Shown: positions 3,767 through 63,465 of the stretch, in pieces
Layout of the letters: the number at the start of each line of letters is the position of its first letter
How positions within the stretch are numbered: position 1 is the stretch's first letter
DNA from: an uncultured Anaerolineales bacterium
Lineage (GTDB): Bacteria > Chloroflexota > Anaerolineae > Anaerolineales > UBA6663
NCBI GenBank assembly: GCA_964480865.1
Contig: CAYZRP010000006.1
Span: forward strand, 4,064 to 68,063
DNA length: 64,000 nucleotides
Direction: 5' to 3'
Notes under the pieces: generated by a model
What the model was told of the DNA's origin: nothing
The model's database searches: none
What the model saw: the letters and a program-made list of their open reading frames with translations, nothing else
Made by a program: the position numbers and the translations under genes

Positions 3767-4075
3767 CTATCGGCGATAGGCGCGGTAGGCCTCACCAAAG
3801 CGCAGGGTGAGTTCGCGCGTCTCGTGCACCGCGATATCGCGCAGGAGGCCGGTGACGATGACCACGGTCGAGGCGATGACGAAGCCTGAGCCGAGACCCA
3901 TACCCAGTCCCAAAAGAATGATCAGCGCGCTCAGCGTCATCGGGTTGCGACTCCAGGCGTAAGGTCCTGTCGTTACTGGCCGCTGTGTCGCCACCTGCGG
4001 CGCCGGTATGCCGTGTTCCTCGGTGTACTGTACGCCGATGGGCCCGAGCACCAGTGCCAATCCCACCAGTTCCAA
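3767..4075 (-). pseudogene. isoprenylcysteine carboxyl / phospholipid methyltransferase-family fragment (C-terminal ~100 aa only)
   Basis: TTGPYAWSRNPMTLS and ..ETRELTLRFGEAYRAYRR match the C-terminal half of the ICMT/PEMT family. The usual N-terminal TM helices are missing. The fragment abuts the 3' end of the tnpB relic. Confidence 0.45.
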
Positions 4076-4172
4076 CGCGGCACCGCACTCCGAAGTGTTA
4101 TCGTTTAGCGCAAGGCCAAACGAGCGTCGGTTCCTGCTTCCACGCTGGGCACCTGGCGAGCCCCATGGCTCG

Positions 4173-5359
4173 TCATGGACATCTCCGCTCCACAGGCGTC
4201 ACTTCCCGCGGCATGCCGCCGGAACTCGCGGTACGTTTCGTCACCAGCTGTGCCAGGTTCTGGGCGGCGTTCCAATCGCGGTCGTGCTCGGCGCCACAGC
4301 TCGGACAGGTCCAGCGCCGCACGTCCAGCGCCAGCTCCTCCAGCTTGTGCCCGCAGAGGTGGCACAGCCTGCTGGACGGATAGAACCGATCCGCCAGCAC
4401 CACCTGCCCGCCGCTCCACGCCGCCTTGTAGGTGAGCTGTCGCTTGAACTCCGCCCAGCTCACATCCGCGATCGCGTGCGATCGTGCGCGATCGCCGCCG
4501 CCAACCGATGGTTCTTCTGCATCCCGCGCAAATTCAGGTCTTCCACCACGAGCACGGCAGTACTCTGCCGCACCGACTTGGTTTTCGTCAGCCTCGTCGT
4601 CGCTTGATGCAATGTCTCTCGTCGGATGTTCGCCACCCGCGCATGCGCCTGCGCCAGCCGCTCGCGCGCCTTCTTTCGGTTCGCTTCGCCGCCCTTCTGG
4701 CGTCGGCTCACCCGCCGCTGCAGACGCTTCACCTGGCGCATGGCCGTCTTCAGCGGCCGCGGGTTGGCGATCACGGTCCCGGCGGCAGAGTACTGCCGAC
4801 ACTCGCCGTCGCCAGCGCCGTCAGCCCCGAGATCCACGCCCGCCATCGGCCTGTCGTTCGGCTTCGGATCCGGGAGCGTCTGCTCGACCTGCACGGCCAC
4901 GAACCAGCGCCCGGTCTTCTCGCTCACCGTGGCGCTGAGCACCTTCACCTCGGGCGTGCCGTCTACCGGCACGTAACCGCGCTGCTTGAGCCGCAGCTTG
5001 CCTAGGCGCGGCAGCTGGATGTGCCGCTCACCGATCCGGATCGTGCCGGTGAGCCGAAAGCTCCCGAGCCCGTGTTTCTTTGTCTTCGGTTTGGGAAAGC
5101 CGACATCGCCTTGCGCAGCGCTTCTCGCGGCGCGCACTTGGAGACGTCGTACATCCAGGGCACGACGGTCCGCTTGAGTTGATTGAGCCTGCGGTGTAGC
5201 TCCATCGCATACGGAGTCGGCTCACCCTGCTCATAGGCGGCGATGCGGACCGCCAGCCCCCAGTTGTACGCCCAACGCGCCGCCCCGGCATGCTGGACAC
5301 ACGCCCGGCGCTGCGCCGCCGTCAGGTCGAGCTCAGTCTGGTAGGCGCGGTGAATCACC
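4173..5359 (-). pseudogene. tnpB: IS200/IS605-family TnpB (OrfB) RNA-guided endonuclease gene, at least 2 frameshifts
   Basis: Three consecutive minus-strand frames carry TnpB segments in order. N-terminal: [23 protein letters not shown]. Middle: GFPKPKTKK..GVDLG..VVVEDLNLRGM. C-terminal: SWAEFKRQLTYKAAW..SSRLCHLCGHK..CPSCGAEHDRDWNAAQNL. No tnpA is present. Confidence 0.8.
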
Positions 5360-5650
5360 CTGGCGGTGCAGGGACAACCGCGGCTGGATTGCGCGCGGGC
5401 AAACCCAGTGTCAATTGCTCGTTTCTCCGCGACCAGCCGTTTTGGGGCTGGGCGATTCATGAGGCTGGCGCCGGCCGGGCCGCATCCCATTCCTCAAAAC
5501 AAGCTGACGATCGGACAACTCGCAACGGCGCTATCGACTGCGGTGCGCGACACGACTATTCGTGGGCGTGCCGCGCGGCTCGGGGATAAGATCAGAGCGG
5601 AAAACGGTGTCGCCCGCGCTATCGGGATCATCGAGACGGTGGCGCCCTAA
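5341..5650 (+). pseudogene. GT1-family (UDP-glycosyltransferase/MGT-like) C-terminal fragment with one frameshift
   Basis: [30 protein letters not shown] in one frame continues in a second frame as [45 protein letters not shown]. There is no N-terminal domain. Confidence 0.5.
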
Positions 5651-5745: not shown

Positions 5746-5774
5746 TTGACATCCACCGTCATTGGCCCTATCTT
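5746..5774 (+). promoter_or_regulatory. sigma70-like promoter of sRNA copy A
   Basis: TTGACA (5746-5751), a 17-nt spacer, then TATCTT (5769-5774). The conserved transcript block starts 7 nt downstream. Confidence 0.6.
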
Positions 5775-5780
5775 GAACCC

Positions 5781-5960
5781 CAACAACATCGATTGCCGGG
5801 CTCCCCACAACCACACCTCTCCGGGTTTTCGCTGCGCCGTGGCCCAACGGTCTGAAATGCGCGGCGACAGGATGGCAACTCATAACCCGGAGGTCGTAGG
5901 TTCGAATCCTGCCCCCGCTACTGAAAAGGCCGTGATCGATTGCGATCACGGCCTTTATAT
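5781..5960 (+). ncRNA. unclassified small RNA with tRNA-fMet 3'-half tail, copy A
   Basis: One of four aligned paralogues. The 3' part CTCATAACCCGGAGGTCGTAGGTTCGAATCCTGCCCCCGCTA is an initiator-tRNA 3' half (T-arm at 5896-5912). No 5' acceptor strand is present. It has its own promoter and terminator. Confidence 0.7.
5928..5960 (+). terminator. intrinsic terminator of sRNA copy A
   Basis: GGCCGTGATCG / CGATCACGGCC forms an 11-bp stem with loop ATTG, followed by TTTATATT. Confidence 0.7.
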
Positions 5961-5996
5961 TGCCACTGGCGCCGCGGAGAGACCTGGAATGGACTC

Positions 5997-12659: not shown

Positions 12660-14288
12660 TCAGGCCTCGGCCGCGAAGTTGCGCATCATACCCTGGTCGG
12701 CGTGCTCCAGGTTGTGGCAATGATAGACAAATAGACCCGCCTGATCGGGACAGCGCATCAGCACCTGCACGGTCTCGCCCGGCATCACGAGCACTGTGTC
12801 CTTCCAGCCGTCGTCGACGAAGCCGGCACTGACCGACTCGTAGCCCGGCGCGAACTCGGGATAGTCGGTGCGCAACGTGCGACCCAATACCTGGAACTGG
12901 ACGCCGTGAATGTGGAAGGGATGGGCCATCCCGAGCGGATCCATCATCTCGCCCGGGGTGACCTCGTTCACGATCTCCCAGACCTCGAGGCTGCCGGCCT
13001 TGACCTTCTCGTCGTCGGCGACCCCGTCCATCTCGAAGGTCCGGCCGTTGATCAGCCAGGTCATGTGCTGGTGCGTGATGACGACCTGCCGCGGTTGGCT
13101 CGCGTTGGCTGCCTCTTCGACGTTCAATGGATTCAGTGGAACAAGCCTGGATGGCAAGGTCAGCGTCTCGGCTTCCTGACGATCCACCTTGATGGTGAGC
13201 AGATCCTGGGCCGTTCCGAGCGCCGGCCCGCCGGACATGGCGCCCATCATGCCGCCGCCCATCATGCCGCCCATCGATCCGCCCGAGTTCGGCACGATCC
13301 CTTCGGCGCCGGTGAAGGTCTGGCTGACCAGCTTGAATTCGTCGTTGACAGCCCTGGAACTGAAGTCAGCCCACAGCTCGAGGCGCTCACCGGGGGCGAG
13401 CATGGCGTAGTCGCGCGTGACCGGCGCTGCGAGCAGACCCCCATCCGTGCCGATCACGCTGAGCGGCGTGCCGTCGCTCCAGGCCAGTTTGTAGATCCGA
13501 CTGTTGGAGCCGTTGAGCACACGGAAGCGATAGGCGCGCGTCGCGACGGGCAGCGTGAGATCGGCCTGCCCGTTGATCAGGATGCGGTCGCCCAGAAAGC
13601 CCATCATGGCCGTCATCATGTCCTGGCCATAGAGTAACTGGTTGTCGGCGTCGAAGGCGCGATCCTGGATGACGAGCGGGACATCGAAGTCGCCGGTCGG
13701 CAGGGCGACGTTGCTCTCCTTATCGTCGCTGACGATGAAGAGGCCGGCCAGCCCCTGGATGACTTGCGAAGCGGTCAATCCGTGTGGATGCGGATGGAAC
13801 CAGTAGGTGCCGGCGCGATCCGTGACCTCGAACTCGTATACGAACTGTTCGCCGGGGGCGATGGCATCGCGCGGATGACCATCCATGACGGCGGGCACAC
13901 GCAGGCCGTGCCAGTGGATGATCGTCTCCTGACCGGCCGGCAGATCGTTCTGCAGCGTGATGCGCACCTTCTGGCCCTTGCGCACGCGGATGATCGGGCC
14001 CAAAAAGGAGCCTGGGATTGTCTGAACGCTTGAGGAATCGCCTGTGATGACGGAGCCCTGGTAGACCCAGGCCTTGGTCGTTGATCCGGGCAGAATGGCG
14101 ACATCGCCGGGTGTGGCCTTGAGGACGAGCTCGAGGTCGGGCTTGAAGTCAACGCTGGGCGTGGGCGATACGGTCGTGGGCAACGGCGCGCGGCAGGCCG
14201 CGAGGAGTGGGGTACCCGTCAGCGCCGCGGCGGTCAGGCCGGTGAGGCGCAGAAAGGCACGACGATCGATCAAGGCTTTGGAAAGCAT
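12660..14288 (-). CDS. multicopper oxidase (CopA/CueO-like) with Tat signal and Met/Gly-rich insert
   Basis: Tat signal RRAFLRLTGLTAAAL. Copper-ligand motifs IHWHGL, WFHPHPHG, HPFHIHG and HCHNLEHADQGMM. Insert GGSMGGMMGGGMMGAMSGG. Confidence 0.9.
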   Translation of the reverse strand: MLSKALIDRRAFLRLTGLTAAALTGTPLLAACRAPLPTTVSPTPSVDFKPDLELVLKATPGDVAILPGSTTKAWVYQGSVITGDSSSVQTIPGSFLGPIIRVRKGQKVRITLQNDLPAGQETIIHWHGLRVPAVMDGHPRDAIAPGEQFVYEFEVTDRAGTYWFHPHPHGLTASQVIQGLAGLFIVSDDKESNVALPTGDFDVPLVIQDRAFDADNQLLYGQDMMTAMMGFLGDRILINGQADLTLPVATRAYRFRVLNGSNSRIYKLAWSDGTPLSVIGTDGGLLAAPVTRDYAMLAPGERLELWADFSSRAVNDEFKLVSQTFTGAEGIVPNSGGSMGGMMGGGMMGAMSGGPALGTAQDLLTIKVDRQEAETLTLPSRLVPLNPLNVEEAANASQPRQVVITHQHMTWLINGRTFEMDGVADDEKVKAGSLEVWEIVNEVTPGEMMDPLGMAHPFHIHGVQFQVLGRTLRTDYPEFAPGYESVSAGFVDDGWKDTVLVMPGETVQVLMRCPDQAGLFVYHCHNLEHADQGMMRNFAAEA

Positions 14289-14342
14289 GTCTGGGTATTT
14301 GCTCCAGGACGTGACGTGTTGGTCATTCTGGGGATCTGGATC

Positions 14343-14693
14343 TCACCGACGTCCTCGCGACGGCAGCTCGGCCAGGATCTCAACGACGGTTTCGGCAAGA
14401 TCGGGAGCGACTCGGGTGTCGCCATCGTGGGGCACGCAGACCTCGGTGCAGCCGCACCATCCAGAGACAATAACAGGCAGAGGCTCTGCCCCTGATCCGT
14501 AGACCAGCAGCACCGCATATTGAACTGCTGAGGTCTCGCTGACCGCCTGTGAGCCGGATGTATCTGCCAGGCCTCGTCTCGAATCTTGCAGGTCGAAGCT
14601 TCGAACGACTGTGAACCCTCGCTGCGTCAGGGTATTGGCCATCGCTTCGAGGAACTCTCGGCCGTCAGCATTGAAAGTGAGCGTGGCGGGCAT
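14343..14693 (-). CDS. hypothetical small Cys-containing protein
   Basis: ATG at 14693, 116 aa, with a GWCGCTEVC cluster. The upstream 48 aa of the track ORF are rejected. Confidence 0.45.
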   Translation of the reverse strand: MPATLTFNADGREFLEAMANTLTQRGFTVVRSFDLQDSRRGLADTSGSQAVSETSAVQYAVLLVYGSGAEPLPVIVSGWCGCTEVCVPHDGDTRVAPDLAETVVEILAELPSRGRR

Positions 14694-14760
14694 GGCTGTC
14701 TCCCATTGGCAGTCTACGCGGGCTCTAATGCAGGCCGTAGCGCTGTTCGGCGGTGGCCGA

Positions 14761-14775
14761 TTAGGCCAAATGGCG
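14761..14775. promoter_or_regulatory. TTAGGCCAAATGGCG box, site 1
   Basis: A recurrent 15-nt motif containing the small inverted repeat GCCA-AA-TGGC. This site lies about 70 nt upstream of the 14693 start. Confidence 0.4.
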
Positions 14776-14866
14776 GGTTGCGACGGCCGGACAACGTGAA
14801 CGGCGTCCAGGGCAGGGGGCCCGGACGCCGTTCGCACTGAACTCGCGTTGGAGGCAGCCTCGCCGA

Positions 14867-15463
14867 TTACGGCACGGCCTGCGGAGTCACGGTGATCATA
14901 TGTCGCCCAGGCCCATATCCGCCGCCCATCGCACCCATATTCGCGAACATCGCTGCGCCCTGGGCGTTCATGTGGGTCGACATTTGATCGGCTTGAGCCT
15001 GGGTCAACACGCCGTCGGCGACAGCCTGCTTGAGCTCGTCGGCCATGGCGGACTGCAGCACCATCGTGAGTTGATCCTGGCTGACGTCCTGAGCCTCGGC
15101 GACCTCGGCCAACGTCTTGCCCGCCGCCAGCTGAGCCGACAGCTCATCCGGAGTGAGGTTCAGCGCGCCGGCCAGGCTGGCCCAAATCTCGGTGTGCATG
15201 CCACCCGTTTCGGTCATCCCCGCATGCATGGCGTTCATGTCCACGCCGGCCATCATCCCCTGTCCGGTTCCACGCATCCCGTAGCCGCCCATCATGCCGG
15301 GGCCCATGCCCGGGTAGGGCGTTACGGTGCCGGACATCATGCCGAAGCCGCCCCAGGGCGAACCGCCCTGAGCCTGCGCGAACCCGGCGCCCATAAGCGC
15401 GAAGGCGCCGATCACGACGGTGGCGGCGGCGGCTGCCGCGGCGATTTTGAGAGAAGTCTTCAT
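14867..15463 (-). CDS. secreted Met/Gly-rich protein (putative periplasmic Cu(I)-binding)
   Basis: ATG at 15463 preceded by AAGGAAG. Signal peptide. Long run of GMM/GMG repeats (GFGMMSG..GMGPGMMGGYGMRGTGQGMMAGVDMNAMHAGM). Confidence 0.7.
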   Translation of the reverse strand: MKTSLKIAAAAAAATVVIGAFALMGAGFAQAQGGSPWGGFGMMSGTVTPYPGMGPGMMGGYGMRGTGQGMMAGVDMNAMHAGMTETGGMHTEIWASLAGALNLTPDELSAQLAAGKTLAEVAEAQDVSQDQLTMVLQSAMADELKQAVADGVLTQAQADQMSTHMNAQGAAMFANMGAMGGGYGPGRHMITVTPQAVP

Positions 15464-15686
15464 CTTTGTTCTTCCTTCGGGCAAGCGCCCTGATGGTGTC
15501 GAGCGAATTGGCCACAGGATAGAGCCGGCGTTTGGAGAAGTTATGAAGACCGGATGCGCTTTGCGTGAAGGGCTGGCTGCCCCGGCTTTCACGAAATGTG
15601 GGCAGATCGTTCATGGGTTCTTCACAACTCTCCGCCAGACTCGCGAAGACGCCGCGGCTGTTCACCCGTCGGCGAGGGGAGAGATC

Positions 15687-16055
15687 ATGTCGAAAACACT
15701 GCAATGGATGGTGGGCGTGGCAGCCCTGTTGTTGGTTCTGGCTTTCGCTGCTGTGATGATCCTGCCCTTCTTCTTCCCGGCGACGGGCGGGTACGGCATG
15801 ATGGGCCAGGGCATGCTGGGACGCGGCATGATGGGCGGCTGGGGCCGCATGGGTGGCTTCGGTTCGGGGATGTTCATCTGGCCGCTGATCCTGATCGGGA
15901 TCGTTGTGGCCGTGGTCTTCTGGGTGGGGCGTGGCCAGCGGCCGGCCCCCGCGCCATCCGCCGCAGCACCTATCGCCTTGCCGGTTTGCAAGGCATGCGG
16001 CCAGACGTTGCAGCCGGACTGGAAGGCCTGTCCTCACTGTGGTGAACGCGTGTGA
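15687..16055 (+). CDS. Met/Gly-rich membrane protein with C-terminal zinc-ribbon
   Basis: ATG at 15687 preceded by GGGGAGAG. Two TM helices flank GGYGMMGQGMLGRGMMGGWGRMGG. The C-terminus carries CKACG..CPHCG. A response-regulator gene follows 18 nt later. Confidence 0.65.
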   Translation: MSKTLQWMVGVAALLLVLAFAAVMILPFFFPATGGYGMMGQGMLGRGMMGGWGRMGGFGSGMFIWPLILIGIVVAVVFWVGRGQRPAPAPSAAAPIALPVCKACGQTLQPDWKACPHCGERV

Positions 16056-16073
16056 AGTCTTATACTGACGCAT

Positions 16074-16751
16074 ATGCAAACGATCCTGGTCGTCGATGAT
16101 GAGCCGCAGATCGTCAAGGTCGTGCGCGGCTACCTGGAGCAGGCAGGCTTTCGAGTGGTCACGGCCAGTGATGGCCCCGCTGCCCTGGCTCAGTATCGGC
16201 ACGAGAAGCCGGACCTTGTCGTCCTCGATCTGAACCTCCCGGGCCTGGATGGCCTCGACGTCGCCCGTCAGATCCGGGCCCGAGACGCTACGCCGATCGT
16301 GATGTTGACGGCTCGCGCGGATGAGAGCGACCGACTCGTCGGTCTGGAGCTCGGCGCCGACGACTACGTGCTCAAACCGTTCAGTCCGAAAGAAGTCGTG
16401 GCACGGGTGCGGGCGGTGCTCCGCCGCAGCGCGACAGCGCCGCAGCCCAAAGTATTGCGCCTGGGCGACCTTGTCATCGACACGGATCGGCACGCCGTCC
16501 TACGTGGTGAGGACGTCCTGGAGCTGACGCCCACCGAGTTCAGACTCCTCTTGGTCTTGGCGCGCGAACCTGGCAGGGTGTTCAATCGCATGCAACTCCT
16601 GGAAGCCGTTGAAGGCGACTCCTTTGAGGGTTATGAGCGCACGATCGATGCGCACGTGAAGAACCTGCGCGCCAAGATTGAGCGCGATCCCAAAAAGCCG
16701 GTCTATGTCCTGACAGTGTTTGGCGTAGGCTATAAGGCTGTGGAAGGCTGA
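16074..16751 (+). CDS. response regulator, OmpR family (CopR/CusR-like)
   Basis: Receiver domain (ILVVDDE..DLVVLDLNLPGLDG) plus a winged-helix output domain (..YVLTVFGVGYK). Confidence 0.85.
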   Translation: MQTILVVDDEPQIVKVVRGYLEQAGFRVVTASDGPAALAQYRHEKPDLVVLDLNLPGLDGLDVARQIRARDATPIVMLTARADESDRLVGLELGADDYVLKPFSPKEVVARVRAVLRRSATAPQPKVLRLGDLVIDTDRHAVLRGEDVLELTPTEFRLLLVLAREPGRVFNRMQLLEAVEGDSFEGYERTIDAHVKNLRAKIERDPKKPVYVLTVFGVGYKAVEG

Positions 16752-16754
16752 GCC

Positions 16755-18113
16755 ATGCGACTGATGGCCAAACTCCAGTTGGCTTTCCTGGCCGTGGTCG
16801 TGGTGGGCATCGGCGTGGTTTCGCTTCTGGCGAACCAGGCGGCTGAGCGCGAGGTCCGCGCCTACATGCTCGGGAGCGGCATGGCCACGGCCAGCCAGCT
16901 CGCCCAGGATCTCGCCGACTACCGCGATCGCGAAGGATCCTGGGCCGGCGTCGAAACGCTGCTGGCCAGCGGCAACACCCATGGCATGGGCGGTATGGGC
17001 ATGGACCAGCGCCTGACGCTGACCGACCTGCAGGGCAACATCATTGCGGACAGCACGGGGACCGCTCCCGGGACGCCTTACGCCTCGACGTCCGCGACGT
17101 CGGTCGCCGTCACGCACTCGGGCGGTACCCTGGCGACCTTGTGGGTGGACGGTGGCATGTCGATGGGTGGCGGCGGCGATGCGCTGGGACTGCTCGATCG
17201 AGTCAATCGGGCCATCTGGCTGGCTGCGTTGGCGGCCGGCGCCGTGGGCCTGGCCCTCGGCGCGGCCTTCTCCTATGGTTTGACGCGTCCGTTACAGCGT
17301 CTCACCGCGGCCACGCGGGCTATCGCGGCCGGTGACTTGAGTCACCGTGTGGCGTCCGACTCTCGCGACGAGATCGGGGAGTTGGCTGGTTCTCTGGACT
17401 CCATGGCGGCCGCGTTGCAAAGAGCTGAACAGCAACGGCGTAGCCTGACGGCCGACATCGCCCACGAACTGCGTAACCCCCTGGCGGTCTTGCAAGGCAA
17501 CCTCGAGGCCCTCAACGACGGCGTGTTGCCGCCCACGCCCGAGAACCTCCAGCCGCTCATCGACCAATCGCGGCTGCTGGCCCGCATCGTCGACGATCTG
17601 CGCACGCTATCGCTGGCCGAAGCCGGCGAACTCCGCCTGGAGCGCGTGGATACGGCTCCCGACGAACTCGTCCGTGCCGTCGTCGCGCGCTTCCAAACTC
17701 AGGCCATGGCCCGGTCGATCGCGCTGAGTGTTGATGCCGATGGGTCATTGCCGGAGGTTGCCATCGACCCGCAACGTATTGAACAGGTGCTGGGCAATCT
17801 GCTCAGCAATGCGTTGCGTCACACCCCTGACGGCGGGCGCGTGACCTGTCGCGTGCAGCGAACCGCTTCGGATCCGGGAAGCATCGAGTTCTCGGTGGCG
17901 GACAGCGGACCCGGCATTCCGCCCGAGGCCCTGGCGCAGGTCTTCGATCGTTTCTATCGCGTCGATCGGGGGCGCGCTCGTGCGGATGGCGGAACGGGGT
18001 TGGGTCTGGCGATCGCCAGACAACTCGTGGCCGCCCACGGCGGCTCGATCCGAGCCGCGAACCAGCCAGGCGGAGGGGCGTGTGTGACATTCACGCTGCC
18101 CGTCCGCCGCTGA
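16755..18113 (+). CDS. sensor histidine kinase (CopS/CusS-like)
   Basis: Two TM helices, a HAMP domain, H-box IAHELRNPL and ATPase boxes (DSGPGIP, GGTGLGLAIA). Confidence 0.85.
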   Translation: MRLMAKLQLAFLAVVVVGIGVVSLLANQAAEREVRAYMLGSGMATASQLAQDLADYRDREGSWAGVETLLASGNTHGMGGMGMDQRLTLTDLQGNIIADSTGTAPGTPYASTSATSVAVTHSGGTLATLWVDGGMSMGGGGDALGLLDRVNRAIWLAALAAGAVGLALGAAFSYGLTRPLQRLTAATRAIAAGDLSHRVASDSRDEIGELAGSLDSMAAALQRAEQQRRSLTADIAHELRNPLAVLQGNLEALNDGVLPPTPENLQPLIDQSRLLARIVDDLRTLSLAEAGELRLERVDTAPDELVRAVVARFQTQAMARSIALSVDADGSLPEVAIDPQRIEQVLGNLLSNALRHTPDGGRVTCRVQRTASDPGSIEFSVADSGPGIPPEALAQVFDRFYRVDRGRARADGGTGLGLAIARQLVAAHGGSIRAANQPGGGACVTFTLPVRR

Positions 18114-18177
18114 AAGACGCCTGCCACACATCACGCGGGGTTTCCCGCTGGCCTGCCGCCCAGTAAAGAGGGTTGCG

Positions 18178-18192
18178 TTAGGCCGAATGGCC
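18178..18192. promoter_or_regulatory. TTAGGCCGAATGGCC box, site 2
   Basis: A variant of the recurrent box, about 105 nt upstream of the DUF305 gene start. Confidence 0.35.
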
Positions 18193-18297
18193 TAGACCCC
18201 CCGGCCTGTACGCCGACTCGATCTGTCAGCTTGTCCGATGTCTCTTTTTCGCCAACGCTCCTAGGGTTGGGGGAGGTCTGTATCCCCAAGGAGGTTC

Positions 18298-18741
18298 GTG
18301 ATGACGTACCGGAAGCTGGCGCTTGCCCTCTTGATCAATGCCGTGATCATGTATCTGGTCATGTACGTGATGATCGACAAACTGGAGTCCTTCTACCTCA
18401 ACATCAACAACGTCTACATGACGGTGATGATGGTGGCGCCGATGCTCATCGTCATGCTGCTCCTCATGCGCAGCATGTATCCGAACCCGCGCCTGAACAC
18501 CGGCCTGATCGCCACAGCCGCGCTGCTCTTTTTGGGGTGCTTTTTCTTGACCCGCCAGCAATGGCCGGTGGGCGACGTCCAGTTCCTGCGATCGATGATC
18601 CCACATCACTCCGGTGCGATCTTGATGTGCGGCCAGGCTCAGATCACCGATCCCGAGATCAAAACCTTGTGCGGTCAGATCATCGAGTCGCAGCAATCGG
18701 AGATCGATCAGATGCGAGCAATCCTGGATCGCCTGCGCTAG
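18298..18741 (+). CDS. DUF305 family protein
   Basis: TM-rich N-terminus followed by LRSMIPHHSGAILMC..IIESQQSEIDQM, typical of DUF305. Confidence 0.75.
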   Translation: MMTYRKLALALLINAVIMYLVMYVMIDKLESFYLNINNVYMTVMMVAPMLIVMLLLMRSMYPNPRLNTGLIATAALLFLGCFFLTRQQWPVGDVQFLRSMIPHHSGAILMCGQAQITDPEIKTLCGQIIESQQSEIDQMRAILDRLR

Positions 18742-18762
18742 GCGCCGCGACGACGATTGTCG

Positions 18763-21342: not shown

Positions 21343-21366
21343 CGTGCTCTTCCCTTCGACCCCCCG

Positions 21367-21380
21367 TTGGCCGAATCACT
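21367..21380. promoter_or_regulatory. TTGGCCGAATCACT partial box, site 3
   Basis: A partial copy of the box, 25-40 nt upstream of the ATPase start (21342, minus strand). Confidence 0.25.
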
Positions 21381-21511
21381 CGGCGGGCAATCTATTTGAC
21401 GAAGACACCTTATCTGGTGCCAGGGGCGAACGGTAGCGCCGAGTCCTCTACGTCAAACGGCGGAGACTGGGCCATCGCTCAGCGCCACTTGGCCATGCAG
21501 CGCTACCCCAC

Positions 21512-21525
21512 CTGGCCAAATGGCG
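21512..21525. promoter_or_regulatory. CTGGCCAAATGGCG box, site 4
   Basis: A copy of the recurrent box. A related TTGGCCATGCAGCG lies 23 nt upstream (21489-21502). Confidence 0.35.
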
Positions 21526-21559
21526 CTCGACACAGACTGAGGAGCGCCCTACGCTTGAG

Positions 21560-22407: not shown

Positions 22408-22470
22408 GTGTTCTTTCTCCTGTCTGTTGACTTCGACTAAACCATACAAAAGAAGTCCATTTATGCGTAG

Positions 22471-22485
22471 CGCCATTTGGCCTAA
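22471..22485. promoter_or_regulatory. CGCCATTTGGCCTAA box (reverse orientation), site 5
   Basis: Exact reverse complement of site 1, about 65 nt upstream of the cupredoxin start. Confidence 0.4.
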
Positions 22486-30223: not shown

Positions 30224-30235
30224 ACGACCCTGGGC

Positions 30236-33585: not shown

Positions 33586-33614
33586 TTGACATGCCCTTGA
33601 AGTAGCCGTACAGT
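33586..33614 (+). promoter_or_regulatory. sigma70-like promoter of sRNA copy B
   Basis: TTGACA (33586-33591), a 17-nt spacer, then TACAGT (33609-33614). Confidence 0.6.
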
Positions 33615-33620
33615 AAGCCC

Positions 33621-33797
33621 CAACAACATCGATTGCCGGGCTCCCCACAACCCCACCTCTCCGGGTTATCCCTGCGCCGTGGCTCTACGGTCTGAAATCG
33701 CGCGGCGACAGGATGGCAACTCATAACCCGGAGGTCGTAGGTTCGAATCCTGCCCCCGCTACTGAAAGGCCGTGATCTTGCGATCGCGGCCTTTTTC
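33621..33797 (+). ncRNA. unclassified small RNA with tRNA-fMet 3'-half tail, copy B
   Basis: Aligns with copy A end to end, with a few substitutions and a 1-nt insertion. The terminator stem 33768-33777/33782-33791 is followed by TTTTT. Confidence 0.7.
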
Positions 33798-33845
33798 TTG
33801 GCCAGCTGTTCTTCTCCACGTTCAGTACGTGCAAAGGCAAGAACC

Positions 33846-34724
33846 CTATAGGCCTTCTTGTTCATCGAGCATTCGGCGAGCCATTCCCAAAGGCTCGCCG
33901 ACGTACGCGTAGATCTTCTCAACGACGGTGGCCAGTGAAGGCGCCTCGAGCCCATTCTTGGTTAAGAACGCCTCCCACTGAGTTGTTCTCTCTGAGTCTG
34001 TCGAGTACTCAGCGGTGAGGCCCAGGGGAGTCGTGGGTGGCAAGGTCGTGGCCCGCCGACGAAACGTCGCCGCGATCGCTGAGGCGATCTCGGTCGGATC
34101 GAGGGTGTTTTCGGCGGCAAGGACGTACAGGTCAAAGTAGTCTTTGAGGCGCGTGTTGGCCATGCCGAAACTGACGATGATCTCAAGTTTCTCGGCGATG
34201 ACGGTGGCACGGGGATACGTCCGCAGTTCGACGGGCGGAAGATCGGGCAATAACGAGGGAAGGCTCGCTTCGACGGGCCCGGGCGTCACGGCATCGCCGA
34301 AGCCAATATCCAGTTGCACCGTGATCCGGGCACTGCCAAGCTTTCCGACGAGCCGGACGCGTAGCCCCTGGTACCGCGATGCCTCACGGATCTCCTCGAT
34401 CCGAGCGGTGGTCGGATCAAAGGTCATTCCATCCGCCGTGTCGACGGCGCAGGCCGCGTGGATCACTCGTTCCAGACTCTGAGCACTCCAATCACCGAGG
34501 CCAAGCAGGTCCGCGTCGCGTGTCGGACGATGAGGGGTATCGAACCACAGTTCAAACAAAAGAGCGCCCTTCAGAAGAAAGGTGTGGCGTTCAGGAAGCT
34601 GTGTGAGACGGTAGAGAAATCGCTCAAGCGCAAACCGTGTCAGAACGAGATTGAAGTCCTCGCGGCGTTGTCGAGCGAGACTCAGCAAACGCGCATGAAT
34701 GGACGCGGCGTTTGGGGTCGTCAT
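33846..34724 (-). CDS. abiEii: AbiEii/AbiGii-family nucleotidyltransferase toxin (DUF1814)
   Basis: ..FALERFLYRL..LLKGALLFELW..RPTRDADLLG.. matches the DUF1814 NTase family. A 4-nt ATGA overlap links it to the upstream antitoxin gene. Confidence 0.85.
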   Translation of the reverse strand: MTTPNAASIHARLLSLARQRREDFNLVLTRFALERFLYRLTQLPERHTFLLKGALLFELWFDTPHRPTRDADLLGLGDWSAQSLERVIHAACAVDTADGMTFDPTTARIEEIREASRYQGLRVRLVGKLGSARITVQLDIGFGDAVTPGPVEASLPSLLPDLPPVELRTYPRATVIAEKLEIIVSFGMANTRLKDYFDLYVLAAENTLDPTEIASAIAATFRRRATTLPPTTPLGLTAEYSTDSERTTQWEAFLTKNGLEAPSLATVVEKIYAYVGEPLGMARRMLDEQEGL

Positions 34725-35320
34725 GCGAGCGACTCCAGGTACGGGCGCATGACATTGGCGACGCGCTGCAGCCTGGCGTATCGCCAGAGGTCATCCAGAC
34801 GAATGTGGCGATCGCGATAGGCCTCACGCAGGGCTTCGATGGCCACCTCAAGCCCGATCTTGTTCCTGAACTTGAAACAGTCCACCACGGTCCGGGCCGG
34901 GTTGGTCAGCCGGATCGTCACGCCATCCACTTTGCGGGCCTCGACTCCCTCCACAAGCGCTTGCGCCGAGAACCGCACCGCGCGGAGCGGGGGATAGGCT
35001 ATGCGAGGCGGGTAATCCTTGTTCGCGATGGCGATCCAGACTTCGTGCGGCGCTTGGGTTGTCAGGTCATGTAGGCGTAGGGCGGTTAGCAGGCAAAAGA
35101 CCACCTCGGGTTTTCGGCCAGCCACCAGTGCGACGGCGCCATGTTCGCCGAGTTGATGGTCCGGAAGCGCATACACGCCACGATCGACGGGGACGAGAAC
35201 GCCTGCGCGTTTCAGGCGCGTGATCTGGCTGCGTGTCAGGCCCTTGGCGACAAGATCTCGGGATCGTGCGGTCCCCTGACGGGCGAGCCAGTTGCGGAGA
35301 GGAGCCGTGAGATCTGTCAT
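34721..35320 (-). CDS. abiEi: AbiEi-family type IV antitoxin / transcriptional autoregulator
   Basis: ATG at 35320 (MTDLTAPLRNWLARQGTARSRDLV..RLKRAGVLVPVDRGVY), an N-terminal wHTH. The track ORF's 36-aa extension runs through the operator palindrome and is rejected. Confidence 0.8.
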   Translation of the reverse strand: MTDLTAPLRNWLARQGTARSRDLVAKGLTRSQITRLKRAGVLVPVDRGVYALPDHQLGEHGAVALVAGRKPEVVFCLLTALRLHDLTTQAPHEVWIAIANKDYPPRIAYPPLRAVRFSAQALVEGVEARKVDGVTIRLTNPARTVVDCFKFRNKIGLEVAIEALREAYRDRHIRLDDLWRYARLQRVANVMRPYLESLA

Positions 35321-35328
35321 AGGGGAAT

Positions 35329-35376
35329 TGTTCCATAGTTTCGGTAAATGCGCAAATTTACCGAAACTATGGAACA
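35329..35376. promoter_or_regulatory. perfect 21-bp inverted repeat (candidate AbiEi operator)
   Basis: TGTTCCATAGTTTCGGTAAAT (35329-35349), spacer GCGCAA, then ATTTACCGAAACTATGGAACA (35356-35376). It begins 9 nt upstream of the abiEi start. Confidence 0.65.
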
Positions 35377-35455
35377 GTTCGATTAAGGCCTTCTCCTGGC
35401 TACATCCCGATTCGCGTAAGGGCTTCAAGACGTGAGCGATCTACTCCTCGGGGCG

Positions 35456-35484
35456 TTGACAATTGGTGGAAGAGGCCGTAGTGT
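35456..35484 (+). promoter_or_regulatory. sigma70-like promoter of sRNA copy C
   Basis: TTGACA (35456-35461), a 17-nt spacer, then TAGTGT (35479-35484). Confidence 0.6.
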
Positions 35485-35490
35485 GTTTGC

Positions 35491-35680
35491 CAACAACATC
35501 GATTGCCGGGCTCCCAACAACCACACCTCTCCGGGTTTTCGCTGCGCCGTGGCTTTACGGTCTGAAGTGCGCGGCGACAGGATGGCAACTCATAACCCGG
35601 AGGTCGTAGGTTCGAATCCTGCCCCCGCCCGAAATACAGAAGGCTCGCCTCTGGATGGAGGCAAGCCTTCTTGTTCGTTC
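35491..35680 (+). ncRNA. unclassified small RNA with tRNA-fMet 3'-half tail, copy C
   Basis: Near-identical to copies A and B up to CCTGCCCCCGC. It then has a different terminator (AAGGCTCGCCTC/GAGGCAAGCCTT, 35640-35669) followed by CTTGTTCGTT. Confidence 0.7.
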
Positions 35681-35793
35681 TCCTGACAGTGTCCAGGGTC
35701 TTGCACCGGAGCTTATTGCCGTTAGTTCTGTTGTCCATCGTGGCCCGTTGCCACACTGTTCTGTGCCAGGCGACGAGGTTGGATAGGCTTGTC

Positions 35794-37086
35794 CTAGGTT
35801 GGCGACAACAGCCAATCGGCAATGGACTGCACATGAATCGTGCCGGCGGACACCGAAATGGGCGCAGCGTTGACATTCGTCAGCAAGAGCCCCGCCGGGA
35901 GGTTCAAGGCCCGCATACCCTCATCCAACGACCGTAGCTCGCGTTCGCGGGTTGTCGGTTGGTCAATCGAAGCGGAAACTTGGATGAGCAGCTTCTTCTC
36001 GGGCACATAGAAGTCCACTTCCTGGCCTGATGGCGCCGCCCAATAGTACACACTCTGTTCGAGTCGCCTCAGCGCCAAAAACACAAGGTTCTCAAGCAAG
36101 TGGCCAGTGTTTGGAGACGCGGCGTAACCAACGGCCTGAGTCAAACCGGTATCAATGGCATAGACTTTTTTGGGCGCGATCTGCTGGCGCCTGACAGATG
36201 GATCATAAACGTTCGTCGTGAGGAGCAGCCAGCTGTTTTCCAGATACTCGATGAAATTCTTGACTGTGTTGACGCTACCGAGTTGCAGCTGCGCTTTCAG
36301 TTTGTTGAAAGAAATTAACCGAGAGGGATTGCTCATCAGGTAGAAAGCCAATTCCTTCAGTTCGCGCACGGCTTCCAATCGATAACGTGTCGCAATGTCG
36401 CGGTAAAGCACGTCTTCATACAAACGGCGTCTCAAATCGATCTCCGGATATCTCAGGAACTCCGGCAAGCCCCCTTGGCGAAGATAATCGGCGAGCAAAC
36501 CCTGCAAGCGGCCTGCATCGGCGGTGGTGCGTGGTGTCGGGAAGGGGGCGTCGACGCCGCGCCAGTGGAGATACTCGCCAAACGAAAACGGAAACAGCTC
36601 GACCTGCTGGTAGCGACCGGTCAAGCGTGTGCCCAGTTCGCCACTCAACAGGGCCGCATTGGAGCCCGTGATGAAGAATTTGTGCCCGAGGTCCATAAAG
36701 CGGCGCACGAATCGCTCCCAACCCGGGATGTTCTGGATCTCATCGACGATGAAGATGCGCCGTTCGCCATAGAGCTCAACCAGGTGTTGATAGAGGTGGG
36801 AAGCGTCATCCGCTTGGAAGCCCAGGAAACGATCGTCTTCGAAGTTGATGTAATAGAAGCGTTCCTCGCCCAACCGGTGAGCGAGCTGGGCCAAGAGCGT
36901 GGACTTGCCGACCCGGCGCAACCCAGAGATGATGACCGCATGCGGGATGGTTTCGGCTTTCATGACTTCACTCAACCGATCGCGCACAAGGCCGACATCT
37001 CTGCTCCAAAAGGCCTGACGCTGTTCAATCAACATGGCTTTGAGTTGATCAGGATCCCATTTGGCTCGCCAATTGTTTTCATTCAT
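35794..37086 (-). CDS. AAA+ ATPase with DUF4143 domain (COG1373-like)
   Basis: Walker A GLRRVGKST and Walker B IFIVDEIQ. C-terminal DUF4143-like region. Confidence 0.8.
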   Translation of the reverse strand: MNENNWRAKWDPDQLKAMLIEQRQAFWSRDVGLVRDRLSEVMKAETIPHAVIISGLRRVGKSTLLAQLAHRLGEERFYYINFEDDRFLGFQADDASHLYQHLVELYGERRIFIVDEIQNIPGWERFVRRFMDLGHKFFITGSNAALLSGELGTRLTGRYQQVELFPFSFGEYLHWRGVDAPFPTPRTTADAGRLQGLLADYLRQGGLPEFLRYPEIDLRRRLYEDVLYRDIATRYRLEAVRELKELAFYLMSNPSRLISFNKLKAQLQLGSVNTVKNFIEYLENSWLLLTTNVYDPSVRRQQIAPKKVYAIDTGLTQAVGYAASPNTGHLLENLVFLALRRLEQSVYYWAAPSGQEVDFYVPEKKLLIQVSASIDQPTTRERELRSLDEGMRALNLPAGLLLTNVNAAPISVSAGTIHVQSIADWLLSPT

Positions 37087-37107
37087 AGTGAAATAATATT
37101 ACAAATA

Positions 37108-37128
37108 GTTTTCATTGTCAATGAAAAC
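37108..37128. promoter_or_regulatory. palindrome GTTTTCATTG-T-CAATGAAAAC upstream of the ATPase gene
   Basis: Perfect 10-bp arms in an AT-rich patch, 22 nt upstream of the 37086 start. Confidence 0.35.
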
Positions 37129-37292
37129 AATAGCATTCCGCCAGGGTCAGCTGCGACCCCATAGCCAGGCTCTTCGCTATAGGGTGAGCGTCCTGAGGCG
37201 AAAGTGACCTAATTGCCATTAGGTCCAGAGGATAGGACTCGGACTGATACTAGAGAAATGGATTTCGACGTTCAGTATGTCTGCGCGAGCTG

Positions 37293-37859
37293 GTGCAGGC
37301 CGGCCTGGCTGCTGGCGAGGATCCGATGGTCCTCATGGCGGACTGCCGGGAGGGCATGGCCGGCGTCGGCAAGCGCTACGAAAGCGGCGAGTACTTCGTC
37401 TCGGACCTGATCATGGCTGGCGAGGTCTTCAAGGAAGTCATGGCCCTGATCGGCACTCGCTTCCAGGGCGACACCGGCACCAAACGCGGGGCCGTCGTGG
37501 TCGGGACGGTCAAGGGTGACATCCACGACATCGGCAAGGACATCGTCGTCAGCCTGCTGCGCGCTGGGAACTACGACGTGGTGGATCTGGGCGTGAACGT
37601 GCCGGCGGAGAAGTTCGTCGAGTCTGTGCAACAAAGCGGGGCTTCAGTGGTCGGCCTCTCCGGGCTGTTGACGATCTCGTTCGACGCCATGAAAGAGACG
37701 GTGGCGGCCCTGGCCGCGGCCGGGCTTCGCGAGAAGGTCAAGATCATGGTCGGCGGTGGGCCTGTCAACGAACAGGTGCGCGAGTTGGTCGGCGCTGACG
37801 CGCTGGGCGGGGACGCTCAGGCGGCGGTGAACCTCTGTGACATGTGGATCGCAGCCTAA
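37293..37859 (+). CDS. cobalamin-binding corrinoid protein (MtaC/MtbC-like), N-terminus short or uncertain
   Basis: B12-binding motif GDIHDIGKDIV (DxHxxG) and a helical cap ..LVQAGLAAGEDP... The frame opens only at 37254 after a TAG stop, and the first usable start is GTG at 37293. Confidence 0.7.
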   Translation: MQAGLAAGEDPMVLMADCREGMAGVGKRYESGEYFVSDLIMAGEVFKEVMALIGTRFQGDTGTKRGAVVVGTVKGDIHDIGKDIVVSLLRAGNYDVVDLGVNVPAEKFVESVQQSGASVVGLSGLLTISFDAMKETVAALAAAGLREKVKIMVGGGPVNEQVRELVGADALGGDAQAAVNLCDMWIAA

Positions 37860-37871
37860 GGAGAAGAGAAC

Positions 37872-39005
37872 ATGGAAAACGTGGCGCTGATGGAAGAACG
37901 CCTTGAGCGCATCCGCAAAGTCATCCGGTTCGAGCCGGTCGACCGTCTGCCGATCATCCAGAACGCCTCGGCCTGGGGGCCGCGCTACACCGGCCATACC
38001 GTGGCCGAGTTCTGCACCGTCAACGAAGCCTCAGCCCGGATCACGATCGAAGCGATGGACAAGCTTGGCGGCGTGGACGGAGTCAATATGGCGATGGTCG
38101 GGCGCACCCCGGCGATTCTGACCACCGCCTGGCTGTCGCGCATCGGCGTGCCCGGCCGCGATCTGCCGCCCGACAGCCTGTGGCAGGTGCGCGAGGCCGA
38201 GGTCATGACGCTCGAGGACTACGACACCATCCTTGAGAAGGGCTGGCCGGCGTTCCTCGACGGCTATATGCCGCGGGTGATCGACCCGGCCGACCTGGGC
38301 GACGCCCTGGGCTTTCTGATGGGCAACCTGAACCCGATGCTGCAGACGTACCACCAGCACGGCTATGTCACCATGGCCTCGACGGCGATCGCGACGCCGT
38401 TCGACTACCTGTGCGGCGGCCGATCGATGTCGCGGTTCTTCGTCGATCTGCACCGCATACCGGACAAGATCCAGGCTGTCATGGACGTCAGCCTTCCGGC
38501 CATCATCGGCCAGGGCATCGGCATCTCGAAGTCAGCCGGTGTGCCCGGCATCTGGATCGGCGGCTGGCGCACGGGGAGCGCGCTTGTGGCGCCGAAGCTG
38601 TGGAACCGCTTTGTCTGGCCGTATCTGGTGCAGTGCGTGCACGTTGTCGCGGCGGCGGGCCTCATCCCGATCTTGCACCTGGATCAGGACTGGACGCGTG
38701 ACCTAGCCCGGTTCCGCGAGTTGCCAGCCAAGACCTGCGTGATGAACCCTGACGGCCTGACCAGCCCGACGAAGTTCAAGGAGATCCTGGGCGATCACAT
38801 GACGTGGATGGGCGACACGCCCGCCACCCTGTTCGCGGCCGGCACGCCGGATGACATCTACGCCTACGTGCGCGATCAGGTCCAGCTGTTTGAGGGCCGC
38901 GGCCTCATCATCGCCCCCGGTTGCGATGCTCCGATCAACACGAAAACCGAGAACATGGAGGCCTTTGTCGCGGCCGCGAAAGAATTTGGCGCGGTGACGG
39001 CGTAG
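37872..39005 (+). CDS. uroporphyrinogen decarboxylase-family methyltransferase (MtaA/CmuA-like)
   Basis: 377 aa, URO-D-like, 12 nt after the corrinoid protein gene. This is the typical pairing in a corrinoid methyltransfer system. Confidence 0.7.
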   Translation: MENVALMEERLERIRKVIRFEPVDRLPIIQNASAWGPRYTGHTVAEFCTVNEASARITIEAMDKLGGVDGVNMAMVGRTPAILTTAWLSRIGVPGRDLPPDSLWQVREAEVMTLEDYDTILEKGWPAFLDGYMPRVIDPADLGDALGFLMGNLNPMLQTYHQHGYVTMASTAIATPFDYLCGGRSMSRFFVDLHRIPDKIQAVMDVSLPAIIGQGIGISKSAGVPGIWIGGWRTGSALVAPKLWNRFVWPYLVQCVHVVAAAGLIPILHLDQDWTRDLARFRELPAKTCVMNPDGLTSPTKFKEILGDHMTWMGDTPATLFAAGTPDDIYAYVRDQVQLFEGRGLIIAPGCDAPINTKTENMEAFVAAAKEFGAVTA

Positions 39006-39090
39006 GGAGGACAGTCACAATAGACACGAATTCACGGCGAATGGGCGCGAGGGACGCGTGGCGATGGTCCCAGGTCTCGGGTATGTGATT

Positions 39091-39176
39091 GGCGCTCATC
39101 ACGCAGAGGTCGCAGGTTGGAATCCAGTCTTCCGCTGGAAAAACACAAGGCCCGCCTCTGGATGGAGGCGGGCCCT
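39091..39176 (+). repeat. degenerate relic (R1) of the sRNA/tRNA-fMet tail plus copy-C-type terminator
   Basis: GGCGCTCATCACGCAGAGGTCGCAGGTTGGAATCCAGTCTTCCGCT aligns with the tRNA-like tail. The hairpin GGCCCGCCTC/GAGGCGGGCC and the next ~60 nt (CTTGTTCGTTCTCCTGACA..) are homologous to 35640-35740. Confidence 0.6.
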
Positions 39177-39230
39177 CTTGTTCGTTCTCCTGACATTATC
39201 CCAGGTCATGCATTAGAGCTACTTACCATT

Positions 39231-39305
39231 GGGTCCGGTGTAGAGCAAAGGCAGCACGTCGGGCTGTTCCCTCGGAGGTCGTCAGTTCGAATCTTGTCCC
39301 CGCTA
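39231..39305 (+). pseudogene. decayed initiator tRNA-Met gene (R2)
   Basis: ..GTAGAGCAAAGGCAGCACGTCGGGCTGTTCCCTCGGAGGTCGTCAGTTCGAATCTTGTCCCCGCTA keeps a tRNA-fMet-like D region and GTCGGGCT. The anticodon loop (CTGTTCC), the T-stem and the acceptor pairing are all broken. Confidence 0.55.
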
Positions 39306-39311
39306 CTTGAA

Positions 39312-39345
39312 AGGCCTGGATCTTGAAGAGATCCGGGCCTTTTTG
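39312..39345 (+). terminator. intrinsic terminator after R2 (homologous to copy B terminator)
   Basis: GGCCTGGATCT / AGATCCGGGCC forms an 11-bp stem with one G-U pair, followed by TTTTTGTTTG. Confidence 0.6.
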
Positions 39346-63250: not shown

Positions 63251-63279
63251 TTGATATATGCCCAGCCGGGCTGTACTGT
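63251..63279 (+). promoter_or_regulatory. sigma70-like promoter of sRNA copy D
   Basis: TTGATA (63251-63256), a 17-nt spacer, then TACTGT (63274-63279). Confidence 0.55.
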
Positions 63280-63285
63280 ATCTGC

Positions 63286-63465
63286 CAACAATGCACTTTG
63301 CCGGGCTCCCCATAACCCCGCCTCTCCGGGGTTTCGTCGCGCCGTGGCTCAACGGTCTGAAATGCGCGGCGACAGCATGACAACTCGTAAGCCGGGGGTG
63401 TAGGTTCGAATCCTGCCCGTGCTTCTTAAATGCCGTGATCGATTGCGATCACGGCATTCTTCTTT
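63286..63465 (+). ncRNA. unclassified small RNA with tRNA-fMet 3'-half tail, copy D (diverged)
   Basis: Collinear with copies A-C but carries many substitutions (CTCGTAA instead of CTCATAA). The T-arm GTAGGTTCGAATCCTGC is intact. The terminator is TGCCGTGATCG/CGATCACGGCA (63431-63456) followed by TTCTTCTTT. Confidence 0.6.

Follow-up and report, generated by a model that had tools for sequence, protein, structure and literature searches.

Transfer RNA (tRNA) genes are the classic landing sites of genomic islands, and the fragments of them that are displaced by such insertions are usually regarded as inert scars. A 64,000-nt stretch of contig CAYZRP010000006.1 from an uncultured Anaerolineales bacterium (the whole stretch that was analysed, hereafter the window, on which all positions are numbered) raises the question of what such a fragment can become. 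Four times on its plus strand the 3' half of an initiator tRNA-Met (tRNA-fMet) gene is joined to a non-tRNA leader, preceded by a promoter and followed by a terminator hairpin (copies A to D; Table 1). A first description of this DNA, made from its letters alone (the sequence-only reading), took these units for four paralogous, independently promoted RNA genes. Is that what they are, and how did each of them come to end in half a tRNA? We think it probable, though with no great assurance, that the units are promoter-driven chimeric RNA genes whose tail is a reused tRNA-fMet 3' half, and that they stand at the junctions of stacked accessory islands. The earlier interpretation as a whole is partly supported by the analysis given below; the island-junction context is absent from it.

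Four promoter-driven units and their relatives

The four copies start at positions 5781 (A), 33621 (B), 35491 (C) and 63286 (D) and can be aligned over ~240 nt. A repeat finder returned them as a single family (D1) with start spacings of 27840, 1870 and 27795 nt, and a covariance model made from the family scored them at 181 (A), 174 (C), 169 (B) and 148 (D) bits, which bears out the claim of four plus-strand paralogues with D as the most diverged. No further full copy was detected in the window by this model. The T-arm 19-mer GTAGGTTCGAATCCTGCCC occurs four times in the window, against 0.02 expected. The distances from A to B and from C to D are nearly equal (27840 and 27795 nt); the two intervals have no sequence in common, and the near-equality is probably a coincidence.

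A search of related genomes, which the sequence-only reading had suggested, brought up very few further copies in the collections scanned. A degenerate 26-nt leader pattern run against 185,579 species genomes found three full copies on one contig of an Anaerolineales metagenome-assembled genome (MAG), at the contiguous loci L004, L002 and L003. The copies there are co-oriented and 9.2 kb apart, so that copies within one genome all have the same orientation in the window as in the MAG, and they retain the promoter hexamers and the spacing described below. A second pattern found one truncated copy in a metagenome collection. The remaining pattern matches were ordinary tRNA-Met genes with a chance match upstream, or coding sequence, and scans of viral contigs with the patterns gave chance matches only.

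In copy A, the leader consists of a CAACAA start, GCCGGG, a G-free C/A-rich stretch, CUCCGGGUU and a 39-nt hairpin, in that order. The conserved body begins at CAACAA, 6 nt past a TAnnnT hexamer, in all four copies of the window. The -35 and -10 hexamers and their exact 17-nt spacing, as originally described for the four copies, are kept in all 7 full copies (4 in the window and 3 in the MAG), while the spacers themselves have largely diverged. A simple promoter scanner gave A and B 10/12 and placed C and D slightly under its cut-off. The statement that homology stops at CAACAA did not hold, as B, C, D and L002 remain weakly homologous up to about -60. Conservation is much higher across the 98 nt that would be transcribed than in the 60 nt before them.

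A GC-rich hairpin and a T-run stand 3' of every copy, and among the copies the terminator stems carry compensatory changes at eight pairs. The terminators that had been assigned to the copies are therefore present, with one amendment: the hairpin behind C is a different one, because a 3.6-kb block was inserted at the 3' end of C and displaced its own. An A-run lies 5' of the terminator hairpin, which makes it usable from both strands. The next downstream gene is convergent with the RNA gene in 7/7 full copies, and the terminator could serve both transcripts. Judged as small-RNA genes on their sequence, the units have their own promoter and an intrinsic terminator, and their conservation is bounded by both.

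The units are not coding, as had been proposed. Indels of +1 in B and -1 in D, and a third one in L002, shift the frame of the overlapping open reading frames (ORFs), and a coding role of these ORFs finds support neither in the indels nor in gene calling based on G+C at third codon positions (GC3). Besides its deletion, which lies in the body, copy D has the anticodon CGT.

Table 1. Units and associated features of the window (L010 and L025 are homologous loci described in the text)
Feature	Position	Strand	Evidence or parts
Copy A, promoter (TTGACA, 17 nt, TATCTT)	5746..5774	+	scanner 10/12; hexamers kept in 7 copies, spacers diverged
Copy A, 98-nt non-tRNA leader	5781..5878	+	alignments, pair counts
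Copy A, 42-nt 3' half of initiator tRNA-Met, from CTCATAA loop to discriminator A	5879..5920	+	identity to L025 tRNA-Met; BLAST
Copy A, terminator hairpin and T-run, with 5'-side A-run	5925..5962	+	fold; compensatory stem changes
Copy B	33586..33800	+	promoter 33586-33614, body 33621-33761 (CTCATAA at 33720), terminator ~33766-33797
AbiEii/AbiEi toxin-antitoxin pair between B and C	33846..35428	-	Pfam; synteny with MAG, L010 and L025
Copy C	35456..35628	+	promoter 35456-35484, body 35491-35628; own terminator displaced to 39307-39345
3.6-kb block inserted at 3' end of C	35629..39232		repeat D2, alignment, absence from MAG, Pfam
Decayed E-type unit: leader remnant and mutated tRNA 3' half (CTCATCA...)	39063..39131	+	similarity to L010 leader
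Decayed full-length tRNA-fMet gene (39233-39306), then original terminator of C	39233..39345	+	alignment with L025 tRNA
Copy D, most diverged	63251..63465	+	promoter TTGATA-17-TACTGT 63251-63279, body 63286-63425, terminator 63429-63458

One nucleotide and three left halves

The origin of the tail became clear from a locus (L025) that was reached through homologues of the AbiEii gene flanking B. At the position of B in this relative, whose AbiEii is 76% identical, ARAGORN calls a true tRNA-Met(CAT) gene of the initiator type (GGG/CCC anticodon stem and 1:72 mismatch), and the terminator, spacer and AbiEii gene behind it are the same as those behind B. The tails of A, B and C are identical at 42/42 positions to the 3' half of this tRNA, and the T arm, variable loop, 3' acceptor strand and discriminator are all present in them. 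When copy A was compared with plasmid and phage collections by BLAST, only nucleotides 97-148 matched, and always 3' halves of tRNA-Met. The assignment of the tail to an initiator tRNA was thus correct.

The nucleotide homology between L025 and the window runs from 34765 to 33720, where it ends exactly at the first C of CTCATAA. A second locus (L010), from a near-identical strain, ends its homology at the same base: it matches the window at 99.8% identity between 37225 and 33720, and left of 33720 it has a different leader of ~90 nt (E-type) with a promoter of its own, TGGACA-17-TACAAT. The E-type leader is homologous to a relic in the window (score 34, compared with 13.7 +/- 2.2 for shuffles). 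Homology between the A-type leader of the four copies and the E-type leader was considered and is not significant, only CCGGGTTT being in common (p = 0.16). One locus therefore has three alternative left halves, the 5' half of a true tRNA, an A-type leader and an E-type leader, joined at one nucleotide, and this is the signature of recombination at the tRNA anticodon loop.

The motif AGGAT(T)GGC(AA/G) stands directly 5' of CTCATAA in A-type and E-type leaders alike (window 5866-5878; L010 ~4011-4023, minus strand; window 39086-39098). CCGGGTTT lies upstream of it, 52 nt away in the A-type and 13 nt in the E-type leader. The shared motif could be a core site for protein binding or a feature of the RNA.

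Insertions and relics around the copies

The window (~65% G+C) and the MAG have only four things in common, namely the RNA copies, the left flank of A (75% identity), the AbiE toxin-antitoxin module (93% identity) and ~100 nt of terminator-containing sequence, which lies downstream of the MAG copies and matches window 39273-39386. From such matches the window genome appears to be a relative of the copy-bearing MAG. At A and at C the RNA gene and the flank to its left are common to both genomes, and the two diverge on the right; B too is bordered on its left by DNA that varies from genome to genome.

The 3.6-kb block is one of these differences. L004 in the MAG is the empty site for C, and in the window the block begins after ...CCCCCGC. 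An imperfect 30-nt repeat of the tRNA tail borders it, and behind this repeat stands the original terminator of C. The block brings a different terminator (35640-35675), genes for an AAA_14/DUF4143 ATPase and for B12-binding and URO-D-like proteins, and the E-type relic; no integrase was detected in it with Pfam. The decayed tRNA-fMet gene that follows aligns with the true tRNA gene of L025, its leader included, and matches the family model weakly. A decayed true-type tRNA-fMet fragment also lies just downstream of the copy in L003. With four intact and two decayed units, the array comprises at least 6 units within 64 kb. The neighbouring relics (the E-type unit and the tRNA pseudogene) show unselected decay, unlike the intact copies.

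Copy C and the E-type relic are each followed by one member of a 110-nt direct repeat (35625-35734 and 39132-39241; 78% identity), which contains an alternative terminator and a promoter-like sequence (CTGACA...). Since the second member runs straight into the decayed tRNA-fMet gene, it may be the original upstream region of that gene.

The tRNA half thus begins at the anticodon-loop sublocation, and the DNA between such halves is variable or absent in relatives, as at the islands catalogued by Islander. The true tRNA at B's locus, the exchangeable left side and the gain and loss of blocks changed our reading of the copies from paralogues to island-junction units. What stood of the earlier view is that each unit is an RNA gene with its own promoter and terminator; what did not stand is that the copies are merely dispersed paralogues, as a true tRNA occupies B's locus in a relative.

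Structure and conservation of the RNA body

Among the 7 full sequences, which come from two closely related genomes, the 141-nt body has a mean column identity of 94%. Five helices were set on the alignment: an acceptor-like one (15-20/135-140), CUCCGGG/CCCGGAG (39-45/108-114), a 9-bp helix closing the hairpin, an inner one of 4 bp, and the T arm. In this structure 95% of the alignment cells are paired. Five pairs vary on one side only; in 5/5 the partner base is constant and the change is a wobble switch (C/U or A/G) that leaves a standard pair. Since a G-U pair here would be a C-A mismatch on the opposite strand, the pattern fits an RNA of the plus strand. The T-arm pairs are invariant. Variation is found in 9/62 paired and 27/81 unpaired columns (Fisher p = 0.012; p = 0.09 without D). 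Hardly any variation occurs in columns 15-45 (4/31 variable), compared with 17/55 in the insert adjoining the tRNA half, which is the most variable part; conservation therefore does not simply fall off with distance from the tRNA half, as in a gene-conversion gradient.

Folding of the whole RNA is more stable than that of shuffled sequences (z = -4.4). The leader can pair with the tRNA half through a 9-nt perfect inverted repeat, CUCCGGGUU with AACCCGGAG, and a second such pairing is possible between GCCGGG and CCC.CGC. A tRNA-like fold lies ~2.4 kcal/mol above the minimum free energy. In addition, AUGG...UCAU (window 5874-5885, the same columns in all copies) could form a 4-bp hairpin in which AUG pairs with the CAU anticodon, and the two substitutions of copy D there, G to A and A to G, both preserve the AUGG/UCAU pairs.

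Taken with the promoters and terminators, these data support selection on the expression signals and probably on the RNA body. The conserved signals suggest that such an RNA is transcribed; the way in which it is conserved, in contrast to the decayed relics, suggests that it may also be selected for a function of its own.

Relation to known RNA families and to assembled genomes

No tRNA or transfer-messenger RNA (tmRNA) gene was called in the window by ARAGORN, and Rfam gave no match in the whole window at gathering scores. In a permissive Rfam scan the tRNA family RF00005 reached 17.3 bits on copy A and 26.6 bits on the E-type unit, both under its gathering score of 29. The D-arm position is taken by a G-free stretch unable to pair, and 52 nt separate CCGGG from CUCAUAA, an arrangement other than the cloverleaf. 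On these searches a known RNA family or a tRNA/tmRNA gene can be rejected, which agrees with the earlier remark that the units were not recognised as any described RNA family. For tmRNA in particular there is no ARAGORN call and no conserved reading frame, as the indels shift it. Similar segment lengths suggested that the leader might derive from the 5' half of tRNA-fMet through mutation of the D arm; its local alignment with the true 5' half scores 11, which does not exceed the score of shuffles (11.7 +/- 1.8), and this candidate was rejected as well.

Exact-protein look-ups returned only near-identical short contigs. Contigs from public short-read assemblies of this population (L011-L017 and L026-L033) end inside the repeated tRNA half, at window positions 5897, 33730-33738 and 35599. 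The repeat breaks metagenome assemblies at the junctions, leaving such arrays fragmented in public data and easily missed.

Genes between the copies

The scanned content of the window includes copper, mercury and chromate resistance, two-component systems, extracytoplasmic function (ECF) sigma factors, a reductive dehalogenase, AbiE and a frameshifted TnpB. In the A-B interval (12660-22497 and 28210-33417) there are genes for a multicopper oxidase, a cupredoxin, a DUF305 protein, a P-type ATPase with an HMA domain, a chromate transporter and a second P-type ATPase, together with several LuxR- and OmpR-type two-component pairs that show internal paralogy (repeats D3 and D5). In the variable block between the C region and D, positions 45844-50295 hold a reductive dehalogenase-like gene (Dehalogenase and Fer4) and, after it, FMN_bind/Fer4_5 and ApbE genes.

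Left of copy A lies a frameshifted IS605-type TnpB (OrfB) pseudogene on the minus strand (4100-5490; HTH_OrfB_IS605 at 5002-5490 and OrfB_IS605 at 4460-5137 in another frame). Its first ~130 nt and the intergenic region are 75% conserved beside the A-like copy of the MAG. A TnpB guide RNA was considered for copy A and rejected: the OrfB gene is divergent from A, and the RNA lies on its 5' side.

The AbiE pair, a type IV toxin-antitoxin system, is bracketed by B and C. AbiEii-family enzymes are nucleotidyltransferases, and some of their relatives modify tRNA 3' ends. The adjacency of AbiE to tRNA-like genes may or may not be meaningful; a link between the two was rejected, as AbiE adjoins only 2/4 copies and more distant AbiE homologues have no unit beside them.

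Mechanism and alternative explanations

The comparisons show the anatomy of the units, their exchangeable left side, the insertions and the conservation of the expression signals, and they suggest the following course of events. As the tRNA half is the same in the true tRNA gene and in all units, and co-oriented, recombination would insert, delete or swap the DNA in between. Direct comparative evidence points to this shared, co-oriented half, together with the partly similar terminators, as the substrate of exchange. Since every partner carries the identical tRNA half, an exchange would leave intact genes on both sides. An integrase from another part of the genome might carry out the reaction site-specifically, with the anticodon loop as its target; alternatively, the reaction might be homologous recombination over the 42 identical nucleotides. 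The leader would supply the promoter and the terminator of the tRNA gene would end the transcript, giving an RNA of ~145-180 nt in which the leader is predicted to pair back onto the tRNA half, and which would end in the T arm, acceptor strand and terminator. Our preferred guess, by analogy with tRNAOther (see below), is that this might be a regulatory RNA of the pseudo-tRNA type or a mimic of tRNA-fMet.

Several observations weigh against this interpretation. No Phage_integrase, Resolvase or Recombinase domain was found by Pfam in the ~55 gene-sized ORFs scanned in the window, a few of which lack any Pfam match, and no recombinase in the 10 of 18 ORFs scanned of a 24-kb stretch of the MAG. 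ARAGORN finds no intact tRNA-fMet gene in the window, where only the decayed, co-oriented gene at 39233-39306 is present. No motif of at least 7 nt is repeated in all units, as the arm sites of an integrase would be, and the sequence just left of CTCATAA is not an inverted repeat of the right side, unlike a classical core site. Within the RNA body there is no double compensatory change among the 7 full sequences of the two close genomes. Moreover, variants are common to the copies within a genome (GCGCAATGG in two MAG copies, compared with GCGCCGTGG in every copy of the window); this points to concerted evolution, by which the apparent conservation is inflated. Lastly, the G-free stretch CUCCCCACAACCACACCUCUCC, which contains CACCUC and CCUCUCC, has a likeness to the anti-Shine-Dalgarno sequence. 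Its pairing to 52 start regions of window genes is not enriched, in a comparison of low power: the mean duplex energy was -10.45 for start regions (n=52), -10.70 for internal controls and -10.11 +/- 0.66 for shuffled seeds. A seed of this kind was accordingly rejected.

That the units are recombination scars or sites and nothing else is possible, though we doubt it. They would then be attR-type junctions of integrase-less islands, mobilised in trans or dead; the promoter-like hexamers would be there by chance or for the benefit of the island, and any RNA made from them would be without function. A common core of 42 nt in a conserved unit of ~260 bp has the dimensions of known attP sites (phage L5, lambda). 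A scar would explain why the tail starts precisely with the anticodon loop, why one nucleotide is the point of fusion for two unrelated leaders, and why left sides can be exchanged and the DNA blocks from copy to copy differ; the seed-target test was negative, and the principle behind Islander applies (PMC4383910). A scar would not be expected to keep perfect or near-perfect hexamers at 17 nt, around diverged spacers, in 7 A-type copies and a second time in an E-type leader unrelated to them, or to conserve the transcribed 98 nt far better than the 60 nt upstream. Nor would it explain why paired columns vary less and why the changes in them keep pairing. Repeated arm-type motifs are missing, as is an integrase among the ORFs scanned, and the true relics nearby have decayed.

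A bolder, integron-like form of the proposal is in our view unlikely, namely that each block of accessory genes comes with one complete, promoter-driven pseudo-tRNA-fMet gene, at which it recombines. A circle with a leader, CTCATAA, the tRNA half and a terminator would be an intact gene, and blocks from 1.9 kb (the AbiE pair) to 28 kb would be inserted, swapped and excised at any copy or at a true tRNA-fMet gene. The recombinase would be encoded elsewhere, and the RNA might possibly take part in the reaction or regulate it. The A-type and E-type leaders, of which there are at least two families, would mark different cassette lineages.

Rather improbable is an ordinary family of trans-acting small RNAs that spread by duplication, with the tRNA-like tail as a stabilising 3' domain and the rearrangements as by-products of homologous recombination between repeats. 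A conserved promoter, terminator and body, a folding z of -4.4 and the lack of a recombinase among the ORFs scanned nearby would all suit such a family, as would the CACCUC and CCUCUCC of the G-free stretch, for their likeness to an anti-Shine-Dalgarno sequence. The break exactly at the anticodon loop, with a true tRNA-fMet gene at the same locus, would not, and the same is true of a second, unrelated leader fused at the same base. In addition, the copies are co-oriented and lie at the boundaries of variable DNA, and predicted targets are not enriched.

We give next to no credence to functional but aberrant initiator tRNA genes, in which removal of 52 nt would restore a perfect initiator anticodon arm (CUCCGGG-CUCAUAA-CCCGGAG): the insert is indeed flanked by perfect complementarity of 7-9 bp, GCCGGG could act as a 5' acceptor strand, and the tRNA-like fold is only ~2.4 kcal/mol from the minimum, but ARAGORN calls none of them, the Rfam tRNA score is 17.3 bits with a cut-off of 29, the D-arm position cannot pair, D has the anticodon CGU and mismatches, the leader has no significant similarity to a true 5' half, and we know of no bacterial splicing mechanism that would remove such an insert.

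Comparison with known systems

That displaced tRNA halves stand at the ends of islands is well known. Williams 2002, as cited in PMC4383910 for this point, describes displaced 3' fragments of tRNA genes at island ends. In the Islander collection itself a displaced 3' fragment is present in 3760/3919 islands, the anticodon loop is the commonest integration sublocation (2083/3919), and tandems of 3 or more include only 4/3919 islands (PMC4383910). Like the units described here, Islander fragments are oriented as the tRNA gene, mark the boundaries of variable DNA and occur in tandem arrays. Unlike those islands, the intervals here have no integrase in the ORFs scanned, and at least 4 intact and 2 decayed units are packed into 64 kb. 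Unlike those fragments, the units have a 100-nt promoter-bearing leader and a maintained terminator, and they look selected rather than decaying. What is new here is the coupling of the halves to two kinds of conserved, promoter-bearing leaders, kept intact in an array without a detected integrase.

A close parallel among tRNA-derived genes is tRNAOther of Bacillus cereus, presented in PMC3399842 as a pseudo-tRNA beside an island, with no role in translation and with the behaviour of a regulatory RNA. It is, like the units here, a tRNA-derived gene flanking an island. As described there, tRNAOther is a whole predicted pseudo-tRNA, whereas the units here, known from sequence, have the 3' half only and an unrelated leader as their 5' part. 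In tmRNA and the bacterial Y RNA YrlA, too, a T arm and an acceptor-like end are joined to a non-tRNA domain; the tail here is in contrast a literal half of tRNA-fMet with the CAU loop, and not a mimic.

Stacking of elements without an integrase has a reported parallel in the ICESt1/CIME system of Streptococcus thermophilus, whose integrase-less, cis-mobilisable elements are said to be bounded by att sites and stacked at one target gene. The att sites there are short repeats, whereas the units here are promoter-driven RNA genes whose mobility is hypothetical. Within the same phylum, Dehalococcoides reportedly has tandem islands targeted to ssrA, which bear reductive dehalogenase genes and a recombinase and repeat ~20 nt from the end of ssrA. 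Both cases have accessory islands in tandem at the gene of a small RNA, and one interval here likewise contains a reductive dehalogenase gene; the target here is tRNA-fMet.

Implications

In the array described here, each displaced tRNA half is coupled to a conserved promoter, leader and terminator. Two unrelated versions of this arrangement exist, and it appears to be maintained by selection. If the RNAs are made and functional, then island junctions can be a source of new RNAs that have regulatory roles or mimic tRNAs. Should the units be active recombination sites, an uncultured lineage of Chloroflexi would be shuffling blocks for metal resistance, toxin-antitoxin systems and dehalogenation in the manner of cassettes, without island-borne integrases.

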